DNA from: Candidatus Binatia bacterium | GTDB taxonomy: Bacteria > Desulfobacterota > Binatia > Bin18 | Reading direction: 5' to 3' | Length of the DNA stretch: 64,000 bases | Assembly (NCBI GenBank): GCA_963666315.2 | Contig: CAXXHG010000005.1 | Span: 36,287 to 100,286 of the forward strand | Part shown: positions 512 through 49,112 of the stretch, in pieces | How the letters are laid out: the number at the start of each line of letters is the position of its first letter | How positions within the stretch are numbered: position 1 is the first letter of the stretch | Notes under the pieces: generated by a model | What the model was told of the DNA's origin: nothing | The model's input: only the letters and a program-made list of their open reading frames with translations | Databases searched by the model: none | Made by a program: the position numbers and the translations under genes

Positions 512-976
512 ATGAAACTGTCGAAAAAAAGTGAATATGCGCTGAAGGCGCTGAGTTGTCTGGGGGCGCCTGGGGCACCTGAGGTGCTAGCGATCCAAGA
601 AATTGCTCGCCGCGAACACATTCCCAAGAAATTTTTGGAGCAAGTGCTTCTGGCACTCAAGCGGGCGGGTATTGTGCAGAGCACTCGGGGAAAAGCGGGC
701 GGGTATACTTTGTGTAGCGATCCGGAGACGATCACCCTACGCGAGGTGGTGTGGGCGGTAGACGGTCCACTTGCTCCTCTCCCTTGCGTGTCCGACACCA
801 ACCCGAGGAAGTGTGCCGACTGTGTGAGCTTCGAACACTGTTGGCTACGGGAGGTGATGTTAGAAGTGGGTGAGTCGATTGCCGCCGCCTTTGCTCAGGT
901 GAGTTTGGCCGAGGTGTGCAGGCGTGCGGAAGAAAGCCGACGGCGCGGATCGCACGTGGCTATGTATGACATCTAG
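512..976 (+). CDS. Rrf2 family transcriptional regulator, CymR-like
   Basis: wHTH with STRGKAGGY wing, Cys cluster and C-terminal MYDI; divergent from the sulfite reductase. Confidence 0.9.
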   Translation: MKLSKKSEYALKALSCLGAPGAPEVLAIQEIARREHIPKKFLEQVLLALKRAGIVQSTRGKAGGYTLCSDPETITLREVVWAVDGPLAPLPCVSDTNPRKCADCVSFEHCWLREVMLEVGESIAAAFAQVSLAEVCRRAEESRRRGSHVAMYDI

Positions 977-1116
977 TTTCGTTCTGCTGCCAAGAGAGCC
1001 AAGGGAGCTGTGCTTTTATGAAGAATCAAGCGGGGAAATAAGACTTGACGTAGACACTCAGCTTTTCTAAGGTCAGAACACACAAGCCGCGTATACGACC
1101 GGGAGAGGAGCCGTCG

Positions 1117-1740
1117 ATGAGCATCAAGAGAAAGTTGTTTGACTATCTGCCTTGACCGTTTGCTATGAGAACGAGGATCGTTCTCAAAGAAAAAGATCTG
1201 GACTTTGATCGCATCTTGGTGGATCTGCCGAGCAAAGAACAGAAAGAGCCCTGGTTCCTGGCCATTAATCCGTACGGTAAAGTGCCCGTGCTCGTCGAGG
1301 AGGGAGCCTGGATCTACGAGTCGGCCATTTGTAATGAGTATCTGGAAGACAAATATCCAACGCCGTCTTTGTCGCCGTCTGAGCCCAGTGCAAAGGCTGA
1401 GATGCGGTTGCTTATTGAAATGTGTAACAGCCGGTTCGTACCGCCCGTGATTCGTTTGCTCTACACCAGCCGTAAGCCCAACGCTGAACAAGATCCGGAG
1501 CGCATCGCGCAGAATAAAGACCAACTCAGCGAACTCTTCCCCCAGTTGGAGGAGCAACTCCAAGACCAGGACTACCTCATGGGGGAGTATAGCCTGGCGG
1601 ATTTGACGTTTACGCCGTTTCTCGGTTTGTGTGACAAGGTCAGTGTTGACTTGAGTCCCTTTCCAAAAGTTTCAGCCTGGGCCGAACGGCTCAAAAACCG
1701 GCCCAGCTATGAAGAGGTCAGGATTGGGCTGACGGGTTAG
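1117..1740 (+). CDS. Glutathione S-transferase family protein, probable selenoprotein (U13 in U-P-F-A)
   Basis: RBS GAGGAG at 1105-1110, ATG 1117, in-frame TGA 1153-1155, then in frame into ORF 1165..1740 with INPYGKVPVL, ESAICNEYLE and SLADL GST motifs. Confidence 0.85.
1166..1186 (+). promoter_or_regulatory. Bacterial SECIS-like hairpin
   Basis: Perfect stem TGAGAACGA-GGA-TCGTTCTCA starting 10 nt after the UGA, with G at the start of the apical loop. Confidence 0.75.
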
Positions 1741-1796
1741 CGACACGTTTTCATACTCGTATCTCCTCAATAATATGAGACCAGGACGAGACCAGT

Positions 1797-1828
1797 GGGG
1801 GCGGTTCATAAACCGCCCCTATTTTTTT
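1797..1828 (+). terminator. Rho-independent terminator after the GST
   Basis: GGGGCGGTT-CATA-AACCGCCCC followed by a T-tract. Confidence 0.8.
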
Positions 1829-1920
1829 GTGAGAATCTTTTCAAGCTGGACTAGATTTTCCCCGCTCCCTAGTTGATAGTAAGCCGTCGAGGCTCAGAAT
1901 ACATGAGGAAGCACGCAGGT

Positions 1921-3527: not shown

Positions 3528-4052
3528 ATGCGAGTTGAGAAAAACTGCTCTACTGATGATGAATCTTGCGATGCATCTTGGATGCGTGCCGCCCTTGCCG
3601 AAGCTGAGCGGGCGGAAGCGGCCGATGAGGTGCCGGTCGGCGCGGTTGTGGTGAGCGGTGCACGTATCGTTGGCAGAGGACACAATGCTCCGCTCTCCTC
3701 AAATGATCCGACTGCTCATGCCGAAGTCCTGGCTTTACGCCAAGCGGCTGGTGAGATGCGGAATTACCGTTTAGTGGATACAACGCTTTACACGACTGTG
3801 GAACCGTGTCTGATGTGTATGGGCGCGATGCTACATGCTCGGGTGAAGCGATTGGTCTTTGGTTGCTTTGATCCCAAAGCTGGGGCAGCTGGATCCCTGT
3901 ACAATGTACCAATGGATACGCGCTTGAATCATCGCCCGGAAGTGACGAGTGGGATAGGTGCAGAAGACAGTCGGACGCTCTTACAACGCTTTTTCCGAAC
4001 CAAGCGCCAGCGTGAGCGTCATCTTTGCGCCCCTATAGGAAATCCCCTATAG
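3528..4052 (+). CDS. tadA: tRNA adenosine(34) deaminase
   Basis: EVPVGAV, DPTAHAE, EPCLMC and DPKAGAAGS motifs. Confidence 0.95.
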   Translation: MRVEKNCSTDDESCDASWMRAALAEAERAEAADEVPVGAVVVSGARIVGRGHNAPLSSNDPTAHAEVLALRQAAGEMRNYRLVDTTLYTTVEPCLMCMGAMLHARVKRLVFGCFDPKAGAAGSLYNVPMDTRLNHRPEVTSGIGAEDSRTLLQRFFRTKRQRERHLCAPIGNPL

Positions 4053-4066
4053 TAAGTGACAAGCCC

Positions 4067-4156
4067 GGAGAGGTGGCAGAGTCCGGTCGATCGCGCACGA
4101 CTCGAAATCGTGTATACTTTCGGGTATCGGGGGTTCGAATCCCCCCCTCTCCGCCA
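4067..4156 (+). tRNA. tRNA-Ser(CGA)
   Basis: GGAGAGG acceptor, CACGA-CT-CGA-AA-TCGTG anticodon arm, long variable arm, GGTTCGAATCC T arm, encoded CCA. Confidence 0.95.
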
Positions 4157-4249: not shown

Positions 4250-5535
4250 ATGGACATTGGACTTGGTATTGCACTCCTGGCAGGTTTTCTGTCTTTCGCC
4301 TCGCCGTGTGTCCTGCCTATCGTACCTGGTTATTTGACCTTTATTACTGGCATGAGCTTCGAAGAGCTGACCGAACGACAACGTCCGTCCCATGTGGTGA
4401 CGAGTGCGGTGATCAAAAGCCTGCCCTTTGTCTGCGGCTTTTCCCTCGTCTTTATTTCCCTGGGTGCCTCGGCTTCCGCGGTGAGTGTGCTGCTGCGGTC
4501 CAATCTTGGACTGCTCAAAGGTGTTGCCGGATTTGGGATCATGGTCCTCGGCTTCCACCTGGCGGGTCTGTTACCTATCCCCGCCTTGCTCCGTGAGCGG
4601 CGCTTCTCAAAGGAACCGACAGAAACCGGGCATGCTGCGTGCCTTTGTCGCTGGCGTCTTTTTTGCTTTTGGGTGGACGCCGTGTGTGGGCCCTATTTTG
4701 GCCGGTATTCTGGCGATTGCGGCCACTACCCAGACGCTAGGCCAGGGTGTTTCTGTTGTTGGCGGTCTATTCCGTGGGACTCGGCATCCCTTTTGTTTTG
4801 TCTGCGGCCTTTTTGAACAGTTTTCTGTCCCTGTTTAAAGGCATAAAAAGCCATTTGCGGCAAATGGAAGTCGCCGCAGGTATGTTACTCGTCTTGGTCG
4901 GCTTGCTGATTTTCACAGATAAAATGGGCTGGGTGTCGTCCCGGTTGACGTTTCTGAACCCAGAGGCGCTCTTAGTCAGTGATTTTCAGGAAACAGGCGT
5001 TCAGCCTGTTATTGCTGCAGAAGCGAGGCCGGTGAGCAGTACCTATGGCGACTACGATTTTACCCTCACCACAGTCGATGGTGACACCGTGAGCTTGTCT
5101 GACTATGAGGGGCAGGTCGTGCTGGTAAACTTTTGGGCCACTTGGTGCGGTCCGTGTGTGGTTGAAACACCGGCCTTGGTCCGCATGTATCATAAATACA
5201 AACGTCAAGGGTTTGCTGTCATAGGCGTCGCCCTGCAGAGTGAGGATGTCGGAGTGCAGGACTTTGTTCGTAAGTATAACATCCCGTATGCAATTGGACG
5301 AGATTCGTCCGACGAGATCGGCCTGCGCTATGGGGTGTTTGCCTTGCCGAGTAGCTTTTTGTTTTCTCTGGACGGAAAAGTGCAACGTGCGTTTACCGGC
5401 TACGTGGCTGAAAACGTACTGGACAACGAGCTCCAGAAGATATTAGGATCGACGTCTGCGCCTCAGACTACGCCTCAAATCGAAGCGATCTTATACCAGG
5501 GGGGCGTGTCAGAATCGAAAACTGCTAGCGAATGA
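4250..5535 (+). CDS. CcdA (cytochrome c biogenesis)-TlpA thioredoxin fusion, with two apparent frameshifts
   Basis: SFASPCVLP (frame 1), FGWTPCVGPIL (frame 2), YSVGLGIPF and NFWATWCGPC (frame 3); shifts near 4630 and 4750. Confidence 0.8.
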
Positions 5536-5689
5536 TGCCAGCGGATATGCCTGCTTCGGGGTGCCTTGGGCACGGCGCGTTCGCTAAGACTGAGGCCGGC
5601 CACACAGAGACTTCTCATACACGCTCTCGGCTGATTCAGGCCCGCCCGCGCTGTTTTTGCCTACGCTGCCGTGCTATCCCCAATGCGCA

Positions 5690-6124
5690 ATGGCTCGCGA
5701 CAATTTTTCAGCTCAAGGTGGTTTGCGGTATGCGGTTGCCTTCCTGGCAAGCGACTCGTGTACCGTTGAGCTGCGTGCAGGACAGTACGAATGGACGCTT
5801 GATGAACCCCGAGAACTTGGCGGGAATGGGGCTGCTCCTGATCCGATCACGGCTTTTTTGGGCAGTTTATGTGGCTGTTTACTCATGTCTCTTGAGATCA
5901 CAGCTAGTGCCCGAAAAGTGCCGCTTGACGATGTGTCTGTCTCAGCCAAGTCTAATATAAAAGGCTTCGTCAAGACGATAGACGTTGACCTGACTGTCCG
6001 GAGCGCTGCCCCTGAGGAGACCGTCCTGACACTGGTCGCCCGAGCGGAAAAGGGTTGTTACGTTCGGGGACTGCTGAAAGACAGTATTACCTATTCTCTG
6101 AACGTAACCGTCCTGCCAACGTGA
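5690..6124 (+). CDS. OsmC/Ohr family protein
   Basis: DEPRELGG..APDP, LGSLCGC and second Cys in AEKGCYV. Confidence 0.85.
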   Translation: MARDNFSAQGGLRYAVAFLASDSCTVELRAGQYEWTLDEPRELGGNGAAPDPITAFLGSLCGCLLMSLEITASARKVPLDDVSVSAKSNIKGFVKTIDVDLTVRSAAPEETVLTLVARAEKGCYVRGLLKDSITYSLNVTVLPT

Positions 6125-6125
6125 C

Positions 6126-6881
6126 GTGGTGAAAATTTCTCTCTCCTTTTTCTCATTACACACCCTCCTCAAATGGGGAGCGGGTTGTGGAATTGTGATT
6201 GTTTTGTTGCATAGCGTTGCCTCACAGGCACAGGCTGCTTGTGCAGAAGACCTTGAAGAAACCCGTCGGGCAGTGGCCTACGCCCTATACGGACTGCGCA
6301 CTACGAGGGAAGTGGTGCGCGCAGCTGAAGCACGGACCCATGGACGTGAGGCCGTATTACAAGAATTGCGTCTGCATCCTCCTGAAGACTATGACTCGAC
6401 GTTGGCGCGGCAGGTAGGGAAGCTCCGGCGCAGCATCGTTCGCCCCAAACGTGCCTTACTCGCGCAGTTAAGAGAGCAGCACGAAGACGCACGGCGTCAC
6501 TGGGAGCGCGGCATTCGACTGATTCACGCGCAGTTTCTTGAAGCTCAAGCGGCCTTTCAGGAACAGCTACTGACACCGGAGGCCTACTGCTACGCTCGAG
6601 AGTCGTATCTCCGAGCACTGTCCCTATATCGGAACGGGCTCGAACACTACCGAACCGGACTGGCCCTGTATGCCGATGGCCTCAACGCATACCGGGAACG
6701 CTTTGTCGTGCCGTGTCTGCAAGGCTATACAGACCCATATCAATGGCAGGTGTTGGTTGAGCGGCTTGAGCGGGAAGATTTCTTGCAAGAGTTCCTCAGT
6801 CCACTCACGACAAATGCTTTGCGTAACGCACCGCAGGACATCCCGCCGGACGTCAATAAGCTGGTGCGTAAGCGACCTTGA
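6126..6881 (+). CDS. Hypothetical secreted helical protein
   Basis: 251-aa ORF with signal-like N-terminus (AQA-A), directly after OsmC. Confidence 0.6.
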   Translation: MVKISLSFFSLHTLLKWGAGCGIVIVLLHSVASQAQAACAEDLEETRRAVAYALYGLRTTREVVRAAEARTHGREAVLQELRLHPPEDYDSTLARQVGKLRRSIVRPKRALLAQLREQHEDARRHWERGIRLIHAQFLEAQAAFQEQLLTPEAYCYARESYLRALSLYRNGLEHYRTGLALYADGLNAYRERFVVPCLQGYTDPYQWQVLVERLEREDFLQEFLSPLTTNALRNAPQDIPPDVNKLVRKRP

Positions 6882-6932
6882 AGATCGACACCACAACAAA
6901 GCGGTGGGGAAAAGGCTACCGGAGGGGAAAGT

Positions 6933-7274
6933 GTGAATCGACACAGTATACGAAAGCAGCACGCTTCCAAGCTTCCCAAAAAGCTAAAAGACTTGTTTTG
7001 GGACTATGACTTTGCGGCTTTACGCTGGGAACCCGATCGAGATCTCATCATAGCGCGAGTACTGACCTTGGGAAGCTGGGATGCTGTGACTTGGTTACGG
7101 TCTGCCGTGGAAGATTGTGCCTTGCGAGAGTGGATCCAGGCTCATCGTGGCGGTGGGATGAGCCCGCAGCGGCTTCGCTTTTGGGAGCTTATCCTAGGAC
7201 TGTCGCACCATCAGGTGAATGCGTGGCTGGCGGAGGAGGGGCGGCGAACTTGGGATCGAAGAAGACACGTCTGA
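6933..7274 (+). CDS. DUF6922-like antitoxin partner of AbiEii nucleotidyltransferase toxins
   Basis: LFWDYDF..L....DRDLIIARVL..G.WD.V.WL and 'LRFWELILGL' pattern. Confidence 0.75.
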   Translation: MNRHSIRKQHASKLPKKLKDLFWDYDFAALRWEPDRDLIIARVLTLGSWDAVTWLRSAVEDCALREWIQAHRGGGMSPQRLRFWELILGLSHHQVNAWLAEEGRRTWDRRRHV

Positions 7275-7294: not shown

Positions 7295-8157
7295 GAACCT
7301 GTTCAGGATCTTTTGAGCAGGAGGACGGTAAAAGCAAGCACGACCATTTGCAGACTGGTGTTCAAGTGCCTCTCGCAGTTCTTCCACAAGCGCCGGCATT
7401 TCTCCAGCCACGCGAAACTCCGCTCCACGACCCACCGTTTCGGGATAACCGTGAAGCGATGCAAGTCGCTCCGTTTGGCTACTTCGACCCTGGCCCCTAG
7501 CGCCGTCTGGACGGCCTGGGCAAACTGCTCGCCGCTATAGCCCCCATCCACCAGCAAGGTCTCAACCTGAGAGAGGGCAGACTCGTGGAGCGCAAAGGCT
7601 GCCAACGCCCCAGCTCGGTCCGTGACATTGGCGGTCGTCACATGGAGCGCATGCGGTAATCCCTGCGTATCTACGGCCAGATGCCGCTTGATCCCCGACA
7701 CTTTCTTGCCCGCGTCATACCCTTTGTGTTTCGCGGTATCCGTGTTCTTCACGCTCTGGGCATCTACGATACAAAAGCTCGTCTTCTCTTTCCGCCCAGC
7801 TTGTATGCGGGCCGCCCCGATGAATTTTTTTTAAGCAGTCCTCTAGCAGGCTGGCCCGCGACTCGACACGTTGCTCACTCCAGATGCGAAAATATTCATG
7901 GCAGGTCCGCCACTTCGGGAAATCCGCAGGGAGCATCCGCCACCGACACCCACTCCTCAACACATAGAGGACACCACAGAAGACATCGTACAAATCGACT
8001 CTCCGGGGTTTTGTCTTCTTGCGCGCCGACTCCAGGAGCGGCCGAATGCGCGCGAACTGCTCGCGCGTGATATCACTCGGGTACCTATGGCTCATGATCC
8101 CCCCTCCTCAACACGGACAGCGTAACAGATCCGTCAGGATTAATCTTGAACAGGTTC
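7295..8157 (-). mobile_element. IS5-family element, copy 1 (863 bp)
   Basis: TIRs GAACCTGTTCAGGAT / ATCTTGAACAGGTTC, flanked by TAA on both sides. Confidence 0.95.
7303..8095 (-). CDS. IS5-family transposase in two ORFs joined by a probable programmed frameshift at an A8 run
   Basis: YPSDIT..W/F and GCRWRMLP.DFP.W (ORF A); GYDAGKKVSGIKRH, DGGY and RWVVERSFAWL (ORF B); T8 at 7825-7832 is present in both copies. Confidence 0.9.
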
Positions 8158-19826: not shown

Positions 19827-20801
19827 ATGATCGAAGTCGATAATGTAACCAAGCAATTTGGCCCTGTTCTCGCGGTCGATCGGGTCTCCTTTCATGTTGC
19901 CCGGGGTGAAGTTGTTGGCTTTCTCGGCCCTAATGGTGCCGGCAAGAGCACGGTCATGCGCATCCTTGCCTGCTTCTTTCCGCCTACCTCGGGGAAGGCC
20001 AGGGTAGGGGGGTATGACGTGACCTCCCACTCGCTCGAAGTCAGGCGGATGGTGGGGTATTTCCCTGAAAAGGCTTCTGTTTACTCGGACCTGTCGGTGC
20101 GAGCCTTTCTCGGTTTTGTGGCCGAGGCCAAGGATGTGCCGCGCAGGAGGCGGGCGCAAGAGGTAGGACGAGTAATAGATAGCTGTGGGCTGAAAGAGGT
20201 ACAGAACCGCATCATCGGCCAGCTCTCTAAAGGCTATCGCCAGCGGGTGGGTATTGCCCAGGCCCTTACCAGCGATCCGGAGGTCCTCATTCTCGATGAG
20301 CCTACCATTGGCCTCGACCCAGAGCAGGTGGTGGAAATTCGCAAGTTTATCCGCGACCTTGGCAAGGAGCGAACGGTGATCCTTTCCACCCATATCCTGC
20401 CCGAGGTGAGTACGGTCTGCGACCGTGTCATTGTGATCAACCGCGGCAGGATCCTCACTTCGGAGTCGCTCAAAGAGTTGCGTGCCCAGCTTCAGCGCAC
20501 CCGCCGGGTGCGGGTGGAGGTCGAGGGGCCGAGGGATCAGGCGGTGGAAGCGTTCTCCCGGCTGCCCGGGGTAGTGCGGGTAGAGGAGGATGGGCCGACT
20601 GAGGACCGTGAATTGCCGGCGGCCGGCGGCGGTCCTGTTAGCTTGGTTGTGGAATACGAGGGAGGAGATATCCACAATGAGGTGAGCCGCACGGTTCTGG
20701 AGCGAGGCTGGGGGCTGCTGGAGGTCCGCTCAGTGGAGCTGACCCTGGAGGACATCTACCTTAAGCTTATCCATGACTCCGGCAGAGCACGGGAGGAGTG
20801 A
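19827..20801 (+). CDS. ABC transporter ATP-binding protein (GldA-like)
   Basis: GPNGAGKS, LSKGYRQRVG, ILDEPTIGLDP. Confidence 0.93.
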   Translation: MIEVDNVTKQFGPVLAVDRVSFHVARGEVVGFLGPNGAGKSTVMRILACFFPPTSGKARVGGYDVTSHSLEVRRMVGYFPEKASVYSDLSVRAFLGFVAEAKDVPRRRRAQEVGRVIDSCGLKEVQNRIIGQLSKGYRQRVGIAQALTSDPEVLILDEPTIGLDPEQVVEIRKFIRDLGKERTVILSTHILPEVSTVCDRVIVINRGRILTSESLKELRAQLQRTRRVRVEVEGPRDQAVEAFSRLPGVVRVEEDGPTEDRELPAAGGGPVSLVVEYEGGDIHNEVSRTVLERGWGLLEVRSVELTLEDIYLKLIHDSGRAREE

Positions 20802-44809: not shown

Positions 44810-45314
44810 CAACCCGTAGAGGGGATGCTGCTCACCAATCTCACGATAGAAACCTTTGAGCAGGCGTATGAAAAAGTCCAGTGGTACTGTCTCAGGTGGC
44901 GAATCGAAATGTATCACAAGGTGCTCAAATCCGGCTTCCACATTGAGCACTGCCGCCTTGGCGAGGCCCAGCGCCTCATCCGGTATGTGACGGTCATGAG
45001 TATCATCGCCTGGCGCTTAGTCATGCTCACGCTTCTTGCCCGGACTTCCCCAGAGGCCCCCTGCACCACACTGCTGACAGAAAATGCCTGGAAGGTGCTC
45101 TACTACACGGTCAAGAGAACAACGGCTCTCCCTCCACAAACACCCTCGCTACGTGAGGCGGTCATCTGGATCGCGCGGCTCGGCGGATTCCTGGCAAGAA
45201 AACATGATGGGCAGCCAGGAACGATCCCGCTGTGGAGGGGGTGGAAACGACTGACCGACTTAACCCAAGGCTGGCTCTTGGCAGCCGGGGGGGAGACTTG
45301 TGGGTAATAGAAAG
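44810..45314 (+). mobile_element. IS4-family (IS50/Tn5-like) 3' remnant
   Basis: WY..RWRIE.YHKVLKSG, IARLGGFLARK.DG.PG...LWRGW; end TGTGGGTAATAGAAAG. Confidence 0.88.
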
Positions 45315-48249: not shown

Positions 48250-49112
48250 GAACCTGTTCAGGATCTTTTGAGCAGGAGGACGGTAAAAGCAAGCACGACC
48301 ATTTGCAGACTGGTGTTCAAGTGCCTCTCGCAGTTCTTCCACAAGCGCCGGCATTTCTCCAGCCACGCGAAACTCCGCTCCACGACCCACCGTTTCGGGA
48401 TAACCGTGAAGCGATGCAAGTCGCTCCGTTTGGCTACTTCGACCCTGGCCCCTAGCGCCGTCTGGACGGCCTGGGCAAACTGCTCGCCGCTATAGCCCCC
48501 ATCCACCAGCAAGGTCTCAACCTGAGAGAGGGCAGACTCGTGGAGCGCAAAGGCTGCCAACGCCCCAGCTCGGTCCGTGACATTGGCGGTCGTCACATGG
48601 AGCGCATGCGGTAATCCCTGCGTATCTACGGCCAGATGCCGCTTGATCCCCGACACTTTCTTGCCCGCGTCATACCCTTTGTGTTTCGCGGTATCCGTGT
48701 TCTTCACGCTCTGGGCATCTACGATACAAAAGCTCGTCTTCTCTTTCCGCCCAGCTTGTATGCGGGCCGCCCCGATGAATTTTTTTTAAGCAGTCCTCTA
48801 GCAGGCTGGCCCGCGACTCGACACGTTGCTCACTCCAGATGCGAAAATATTCATGGCAGGTCCGCCACTTCGGGAAATCCGCAGGGAGCATCCGCCACCG
48901 ACACCCACTCCTCAACACATAGAGGACACCACAGAAGACATCGTACAAATCGACTCTCCGGGGTTTTGTCTTCTTGCGCGCCGACTCCAGGAGCGGCCGA
49001 ATGCGCGCGAACTGCTCGCGCGTGATATCACTCGGGTACCTATGGCTCATGATCCCCCCTCCTCAACACGGACAGCGTAACAGATCCGTCAGGATTAATC
49101 TTGAACAGGTTC
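48250..49112 (-). mobile_element. IS5-family element, copy 2 (transposase 48258..49050)
   Basis: Same TIRs, TAA flanks and ORF translations as copy 1. Confidence 0.95.

Follow-up and report, generated by a model that had tools for sequence, protein, structure and literature searches.

Selenoproteins that resemble glutathione S-transferases (GSTs) have been recorded among bacteria in surveys of environmental sequence. Table 1 of the 2005 Sargasso Sea analysis (Zhang, Fomenko, and Gladyshev; PMC1088965) lists a glutathione S-transferase selenoprotein with four sequences, assigned to COG0625, and the 2008 Global Ocean Sampling analysis (PMC2398784) gives 12 sequences for a GST-like selenoprotein; in the study of Olavius symbionts (PMC1976440) the family is reported as undetected. 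Review tables (PMC9312934, 2022; PMC13188914, 2026) enter the GST-like family as PF13409 or COG0625, with one selenocysteine (Sec) and no redox motif, and according to the 2026 review nearly all prokaryotic selenoproteins of this sort are known from bioinformatics alone, their functions being largely uncharacterised. The deep-Sep paper (PMC12013277) makes no mention of GST. The subject here is a gene at positions 1117 to 1740 of a 64,000-nucleotide stretch of DNA from a Candidatus Binatia bacterium (assembly GCA_963666315.2, contig CAXXHG010000005.1, positions 36,287 to 100,286 of the forward strand), which was analysed over its whole length and is referred to below as the window. The gene is interrupted at codon 13 by an in-frame TGA, which very probably encodes Sec at the catalytic position of a GST.

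The locus is considered a well-supported new member of the already predicted GST-like selenoprotein family, possibly representing a distinct clade. A preliminary description of this DNA, made from its letters, had remarked that Sec-containing GSTs (Sec-GSTs) are mostly predicted, and the published family is indeed purely predicted. Since that family is already in print, the finding is the less novel, and a Sec-GST would not surprise a selenoprotein specialist.

Reading frame and conservation of the in-frame TGA

The features on which the assignment turns are as follows, where SECIS denotes a selenocysteine insertion sequence and ORF an open reading frame.

1101..1110, + strand: Shine-Dalgarno-like sequence GGGAGAGGAG, 6 nt 5′ of ATG1117
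1117..1740, + strand: full coding sequence of the proposed 207-aa GST-like selenoprotein, with Sec at residue 13 and stop codon TAG at 1738-1740
1153..1155, + strand: in-frame TGA, proposed Sec codon for residue 13, at the catalytic Cys column
1165..1167, + strand: Met17 ATG, the start chosen by standard ORF callers (ORF 1165..1740)
1166..1186, + strand: SECIS-like hairpin, stem 1166-1174 with 1178-1186, loop GGA at 1175-1177

From the ATG at 1117-1119, which is the earliest start codon in the read-through frame, 12 codons (MSIKRKLFDYLP) lead to the TGA at 1153-1155, after which the frame proceeds through PFAMRTRIVL and the remainder of the GST ORF to the TAG at 1738-1740. When the TGA is counted as a residue, an ORF of 207 aa (1117..1740) results with a single non-standard step, and standard ORF listing yields 1165..1740 alone (191 aa). 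The preliminary description had pointed to a ribosome-binding site before ATG1117, to an ATG1117-TGA-PFAMRTRIVL frame continuous with the GST, to an ORF track that begins after the TGA and so loses strand beta-1 and the active site, and to a GGA-looped hairpin with a perfect 9-bp stem 10 nt after the UGA, and all four were recovered in this analysis.

Relatives were collected in one scan of genome contigs, and the counts given here for close and distant loci rest on the best 80 of 388 confirmed loci, comprising L001-L043 (close, 60-98% identity) and L044-L080 (distant, 41-46% identity). L041 and L042 begin inside the gene and were omitted from the N-terminal analysis, which was performed on 42 sequences, namely the window and 41 close loci. 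The titles of the locus records are mostly Candidatus Binatia, with some Deltaproteobacteria, Thermodesulfobacteriota or Methylomirabilota. L002, L003, L023, L024, L028, L033, L034, L036, and L043 are titled “uncultured Enterobacteriaceae” or “Klebsiella pneumoniae” yet fall within the Sec-GST clade; most of these also have the gene order of metagenome-assembled genomes (MAGs) of Binatia, and the titles look like placeholders or mislabels.

Codon 13 is TGA in 41 of the 42 sequences, which come from loci of different species-level genomes, and TGC in the remaining one (L028). At the same column the distant loci carry TGC or TGT in 36 of 37 cases and AGC (Ser) in one. The pairing of Cys with TGA that had been looked for among homologs is thus found in L028, in the distant loci, and also in a database protein described below (P0012). 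That the TGA is an assembly or sequencing error for TGC or TGT, or marks a decaying gene, is a reading that can draw on the single-base difference between TGA and TGC; the same TGA, however, recurs in 40 other independently assembled species-level genomes, the 99-nt stretches around it comprise 41 distinct sequences among 42, and no additional stops interrupt the frames of 203-204 codons found in 38 loci (in L037 and L038 the frame closes 8 and 12 codons sooner, respectively). The recurrence effectively refutes a pseudogene or error, to which only a negligible probability is given. Of the refuting outcomes named in the preliminary description, none was encountered among those examined.

The eight codons ahead of the TGA encode RKLFDYL(P/A), corresponding to strand beta-1, in all 42 sequences, and do so using five Arg codons, six Leu codons, and both codons each for Phe, Asp, Tyr, and Lys. 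Because this peptide has been kept through synonymous changes, purifying selection has acted upstream of the TGA at the protein level; PFAMRTRIVL, downstream of the TGA, has likewise been kept through synonymous changes. Across the 42 sequences amino-acid conservation ends upstream of an ATG, which is located 12 codons before the TGA in 25 sequences, 10 codons before it in 4, and 9 codons before it in 13. A GGAG, GAGG or AGGA motif is present 4-16 nt ahead of this ATG in 40 of the 42 sequences, the remaining two having AAGGGGG, and no such motif precedes the Met17 ATG in any of the 42.

A search of 5.8 billion proteins left 510 of 650 candidates at E ≤ 0.001, of which 120 are listed. Among the 94 best matches (P0002-P0095, 64-98% identity), a length of 191 aa is shared by 87 and a length of 192 aa by five; one more has 193 aa, and P0012 has 204 aa. 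Coverage of the query by the 191-193-aa entries is 91-92%, consistent with a start at Met17, where six clade members in alignment A1 and the A2 consensus also begin. Full-length P0012 (68% identity) runs MRKLFDYLACPFAMRT, which places a Cys at the TGA column; in full-length homologs of lower identity (37-47%) the site reads CPF[C/G] or SP[N/F]. When the search was made against 1.84 billion representatives at 50% identity, the clade collapsed to P0054 (191 aa) and fragments, the next relatives being at most 48% identical. The lengths and coverage of the closest clusters agree with the earlier statement that standard annotation misses the gene: at least 87 database clusters are stored as 191-aa forms without the first strand and the catalytic residue and, because these parts are missing, functional or structural inference from such entries is wrong at the active site. 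Three representatives of other GST clusters, P0130, P0184, and P0209 (185-186 aa, 33-40% identity), open with MR[IL].L.EK, which corresponds to residue 19-20, and for this reason have neither beta-1 nor the catalytic column; judged by their sequences, they may represent further TGA-interrupted GST clades.

The stored 191-aa form bears on the possibility that the TGA is a true stop, which would leave a 12-residue leader followed by a GST translated from ATG1165, perhaps by termination-reinitiation, with the hairpin serving regulation or mRNA stability. ATG1165 is positioned only 9 nt past the TGA and is kept in all 42 sequences, as such a mechanism would have it, and it is the 191-aa form that the databases carry. 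Such a product would, however, have neither beta-1 nor the catalytic residue, and the upstream codons have been maintained as a GST beta-1 strand through synonymous changes, matching KLYDY of the full-length homologs. Furthermore, the Met17 ATG has no Shine-Dalgarno motif in any of the 42 sequences and lies within the hairpin, where its U and G supply the first two stem pairs, and the Cys form represented by L028 and P0012 reads straight through, uninterrupted, as 204 aa. The Met17 start is probably false, and a true stop at the TGA is considered very improbable.

In a maximum-likelihood tree of 40 clade rows and 8 outgroup rows, calculated with the Sec/Cys column masked (a quick search with support from the SH-like approximate likelihood ratio test only), the clade has a support of 100 and L028 is nested in an 11-row subclade (support 93) with 10 TGA rows. 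At least two changes of the Sec/Cys label are needed on this tree, and the sequences are consistent with a history of one gain of Sec and one reversion to Cys. The L028 protein is 96% identical to P0012, so that the two represent a single Cys lineage. The Sec-GST is apparently near-fixed within one Binatia-centred clade.

The hairpin and decoding of the UGA

Downstream of the TGA, a perfect 9-bp stem begins after 10 nt, giving a UGA-to-loop spacing of 19 nt, and RNA folding of 1150-1215 predicts this hairpin as the minimum-energy structure. A model for bacterial SECIS (bSECIS) elements is given in the 2026 review (PMC13188914, Fig. 2 legend), and its bounds, including that on minimum free energy (MFE), compare with the window as follows.

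Apical loop: 3-9 nt in the model; 3 nt (GGA) here
Upper stem: 4-16 bp in the model; 9 bp here
G in the first two loop positions: required in the model; GG here
UGA-to-loop spacing: 16-37 nt in the model; 19 nt here
MFE: ≤ −7.5 kcal/mol in the model; −12.5 kcal/mol here

The hairpin lies within every one of these bounds, as they are set out in that source, and its helix covaries among relatives; the preliminary designation of the hairpin as SECIS-like is borne out on both counts. In an alignment of 43 columns counted from the TGA (42 rows, 27 distinct), 97.5% of the 243 cells of the nine-pair helix are paired. At pair 21:27, 20 distinct rows have GC, 7 have AU, and none is unpaired, the changes (ACG to ACA and ATC to ATT) both being synonymous; at pair 18:30, 14 rows have AU, 6 have GU, and 5 have GC, with 2 left unpaired. 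Neither the observed pairing nor the covariation score was reached by any of 500 column shuffles, and sliding of the 3′ arm by 1-3 columns reduces pairing to 33-49%. The GG at the start of the loop is invariant in all 42 sequences.

Codon usage across the hairpin was compared in the 40 rows that reach 195 codons or more, L038 (191 codons) and L043 (130 codons, at a contig end) having been dropped. For the seven hairpin codons the mean normalised codon entropy is 0.40, versus 0.73 for the other 117 informative codons, and the lowest synonymous variability in any seven-codon sliding window of the gene falls on the hairpin. Arg20, which is the source of the loop GG, is AGG in 40 of 40 rows, unlike Arg5 upstream, which uses five codons, and Leu23 is CTC in 38 of 40. 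These patterns of codon usage support a constraint acting at the RNA level over the hairpin.

In the Cys form L028, the fold is the weakest in the clade (−5.0 versus a mean of −12.15 kcal/mol) and an A.C mismatch is found at pair 18:30. In the register of the Sec clade, distant Cys and Ser homologs form between 3 and 7 of the nine pairs, never 8 or 9.

Several observations weigh against the interpretation of UGA1153 as a Sec codon and of the hairpin as its SECIS. As a single sequence the fold is unremarkable (z = −1.61; 18 of 200 shuffles fold as well or better), and perfect 9-bp hairpins give 18 register hits at about 10 distinct sites in the window, compared with an average of 2.35 over 20 shuffles; because the fold is unexceptional from the window sequence alone, its significance must rest on the comparison with relatives. 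There, the mean MFE is −12.15 kcal/mol for 40 TGA loci versus −10.44 kcal/mol (range −15.3 to −5.6) for the equivalent 40 nt of distant loci, and folding energy was rejected as a means of discriminating Sec from Cys forms since the ranges overlap, the register-specific pair count being informative instead. The rows are related by descent, and most of the compensatory AU rows belong to one subclade, so that independent events are few; GC in L009 within this subclade, and AU in L028, which falls outside it, suggest about three such events. A hairpin of 8 bp, displaced by 4 nt, occurs in the distant Cys forms L047 and L066, the 3-nt loops being UCG and GUU. In these two loci, titled Dadabacteria and Ignavibacteriales, the hairpin is located 17-36 nt past the Cys codon, and may be due to chance, a by-product of coding or a relic. 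At gathering thresholds, Rfam detected no SECIS family in the whole window, the sole match being a tRNA; to our knowledge, bacterial SECIS elements are poorly covered by sequence families. Finally, no SelA, SelB or SelD was detected with Pfam among the 63 ORFs of the 64-kb window, and ARAGORN found only tRNA-Ser(CGA), and no tRNA-Sec, in the window and the 43 close loci. Sec insertion is something that we infer, no Sec machinery having been detected in the sequence covered (the 64-kb window and the flanks of the close loci); as only this part of the genome was covered, the negative does not argue that the machinery is missing.

This lack of Sec machinery in the window and the close-locus flanks is the principal observation in favour of a recoding of the UGA other than to Sec, either to Cys by a tRNA(Sec)-like tRNA or through near-cognate read-through by Trp or Cys, in a lineage perhaps without selenium metabolism. 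Cys tRNAs resembling tRNA(Sec) exist, and the literature searched gave one reference-list entry and two unrelated papers, none of which links Binatia or Binatota to selenocysteine, selenoproteins or selenium. On the other hand, the hairpin agrees in full with the bSECIS model of the SelB type, down to the GG of the loop, the maintenance of a UGA and a hairpin for the sake of Cys would bring no obvious advantage over TGC, which L028 has reached in one substitution, and GST-like selenoproteins have already been predicted in other bacteria. Recoding of this kind is considered improbable. The reading that this organism decodes TGA generally as Trp or Gly has nothing but the open frame itself in its favour, and its probability is negligible: in the window TGA is a normal and common stop that closes 26 of the 64 long ORFs and 14 of the 38 Pfam-supported ORFs, translation table 11 gives long intact ORFs, and the homologous column holds Cys rather than Trp or Gly.

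From the frame, the hairpin and their conservation, UGA1153 very probably encodes Sec and the hairpin at 1166-1186 is very probably its SECIS. Translation would start at ATG1117 behind a strong Shine-Dalgarno site; the hairpin would act as a bacterial SECIS at UGA1153, recruiting SelB with Sec-tRNA(Sec), so that Sec would be inserted in place of termination and translation would continue to TAG1738. The finding implies the use of Sec by uncultured Binatia.

The predicted protein and its gene neighbourhood

The read-through product (P0001) matches the Pfam models GST_N_2, GST_N_3, GST_N, and GST_C, and two further GST_C models, all above cutoff, with PF13409 as the best match, and the GST_N matches begin at residue 6-7 and span the TGA. 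No NCBIfam equivalog reaches its cutoff (maiA, 84 bits versus 171; SspA, 64.9 versus 314). An AlphaFold2 model, for which an alignment of 20 sequences was the input, has a mean pLDDT (predicted local distance difference test) of 86.6 and a predicted template modelling (TM) score of 0.82, and places beta-1 at residues 5-9 and alpha-1 at residues 14-25, which puts residue 13 at the N-terminus of alpha-1. Foldseek comparison with the PDB returned only GSTs (phi class, Ure2p, SspA-like, and others), with TM scores of 0.72-0.86. The thioredoxin-like N-terminal domain and helical C-terminal domain of the cytosolic GST superfamily are thus both evident from Pfam, the model, and Foldseek.

By sequence, the closest solved structures are the SspA-like 6v91 and 4qq7 (E about 1e-26), followed by maize GST III, RegF, and human GSTO1 (E = 2.3e-20). 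Residue 13 aligns with the Cys of CPFS in the SspA-like chains and with the Cys of CPFA in GSTO1, where CPFAeRTRlVLKaK is aligned to UPFAmRTRiVLKeK, in agreement with the preliminary placement of a UPFA motif at the CPxx site of Cys-type GSTs. V56, P57, and S69 do not vary among 20 sequences, distant homologs included; E68 shows no variation within the Sec clade. V56-P57, with the cis-Pro of a VP motif, and E68-S69, the E-S motif before alpha-3, correspond to glutathione-site residues of GSTs, and both motifs have been kept. C72 (1330-1332) and C103 (1423-1425) are invariant in 40 of 40 full-length Sec-clade rows, and position 72 is Ile in distant Cys homologs; a role for these residues such as resolving a selenenylsulfide is speculation.

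The predicted product would be a 207-residue cytosolic-type GST in which Sec13, following beta-1 at the N-terminus of alpha-1, forms a UPFA motif like the CPFA of omega-class enzymes. The U13 selenolate would attack a glutathionylated or disulfide substrate to give a mixed Se-S bond with glutathione, which a second glutathione would resolve, regenerating U13, and the outcome would be thiol-transferase, deglutathionylase or reductase activity rather than conjugation. By analogy with these relatives, the specific thiol-transferase chemistry is given about an even chance of being correct.

The genes and signals surrounding the Sec-GST gene are listed below.

3-341, − strand: nitrite/sulfite-reductase-like gene, divergent; in 19 of 43 close loci
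512..976, + strand: Rrf2-family transcriptional regulator, immediately upstream (Pfam Rrf2, E = 8.8e-35); in 24 of 43 close loci
1794..1833, + strand: intrinsic-terminator-like hairpin of 13 pairs with a T-run, 54 nt past the stop codon
1873..3510, + strand: 545-aa metallo-beta-lactamase-fold protein, immediately downstream (Lactamase_B, E = 2.2e-6); in 39 of 43 close loci
3528-4052: cytidine/tRNA-adenosine-type deaminase, here called tadA; in 37 of 43 close loci
4067-4156: tRNA-Ser(CGA), after tadA; syntenic in close loci

The reductase-like, Rrf2, metallo-beta-lactamase-fold, and tadA neighbours are found at none of the 37 distant Cys-homolog loci. From its sequence context the Sec-GST transcription unit looks monocistronic; a simple scan of the 977-1116 spacer revealed no sigma-70-like site.

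That Binatia lack canonical selenium machinery and still keep an in-frame UGA with a hairpin shaped like a SECIS, the UGA being recoded non-canonically to Cys or another residue, is considered distinctly improbable. A candidate class in which the Sec-GST is essentially fixed (41/42), Cys72 and Cys103 are invariant and specific to the clade, and the Rrf2 and metallo-beta-lactamase-fold neighbours are conserved is judged likelier than such non-canonical recoding. Taken together, the fixed Sec-GST, the invariant Cys residues, and the neighbours would point to a dedicated, new selenium-dependent thiol pathway. With its compact SECIS, a natural Sec-to-Cys revertant (L028/P0012), and conserved neighbours, a never-characterised selenoprotein family becomes testable.

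A few kilobases downstream of the Sec-GST gene are an AhpC/TSA (peroxiredoxin-like) gene (4747-5535) and an OsmC-like gene (5657-6124). Sec forms of both families are listed in the environmental surveys (PMC1088965, PMC2398784); the genes in the window are Cys forms, since their domains are uninterrupted. A crude, non-exhaustive listing of window ORFs that continue through a TGA revealed no second selenoprotein gene. At 6126-7274 (+ strand), where the TGA is at 6879-6881, a GGAGGGG and a GTG start follow the TGA, and the region was therefore taken to be two genes and not a selenoprotein; it comprises a 251-aa ORF without a Pfam match and then a DUF6922 ORF. The candidate at 19827/20811 was rejected as adjacent ABC-transporter genes. 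Elsewhere in the window, an insertion sequence-type DDE transposase ORF is present in two copies of equal length and equal Pfam score (92.3 bits) at 7303-7752 and 48258-48707 (both − strand), each overlapped by the same 129-aa ORF (7681-8070 and 48636-49025, both + strand), and the pair probably represents a repeated insertion sequence. Remnants of a Tn5-type transposase are found at 44825-45307.

Comparison with known systems

Among solved structures, the best matches of the protein by sequence are SspA-like homologs (PDB 6v91, 4qq7, and 4hoj; E = 1e-26), which have CPFS at the column of the proposed Sec, and one of which (4qq7) was solved with bound glutathione. Identity with SspA itself was rejected, the NCBIfam equivalog score being 64.9 bits against a cutoff of 314, and there is no sign of an RNA polymerase-binding role.

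Human GSTO1 (PDB 1eem and 6pnm) shares the same fold, and its CPFA-x-RTR-x-VLK corresponds residue for residue to UPFA-M-RTR-I-VLK. Cys32 is the catalytic residue of GSTO1, an enzyme with thiol-transferase, deglutathionylase, and reductase activities. It differs in having Cys where P0001 has the proposed Sec, and the bacterial protein is only distantly similar to it in sequence. At the N-terminal end of alpha-1 the protein has the CPFA-type catalytic motif of the omega class, the proposed Sec standing where these enzymes have Cys. Omega-class GSTs also possess an N-terminal extension of about 19-20 residues before beta-1, whereas only 4 residues precede beta-1 here and the alignment starts at GSTO1 residue 25-30; because this extension is lacking, the protein was not filed as an omega-class member.

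The hairpin resembles SECIS elements of the Escherichia coli fdhF type, as modelled in the 2026 review (PMC13188914), in being a stem-loop within the coding region 3′ of the UGA, with a small apical loop that begins with G and a similar spacing. It differs in that its sequence is unrelated and its 9-bp stem has no bulged U, and SelB binding is putative for the element described here.

With respect to the published GST-like selenoproteins, with which the clade is compared here through the published tables, the known members come from marine metagenomes whereas the sequences assembled here are mostly from Candidatus Binatia MAGs. Both groups have a bacterial GST domain (COG0625/PF13409) with a single Sec and no second motif of the CxxU type, and both are recognised by the same combination of Cys/TGA pairing and a SECIS-like hairpin.

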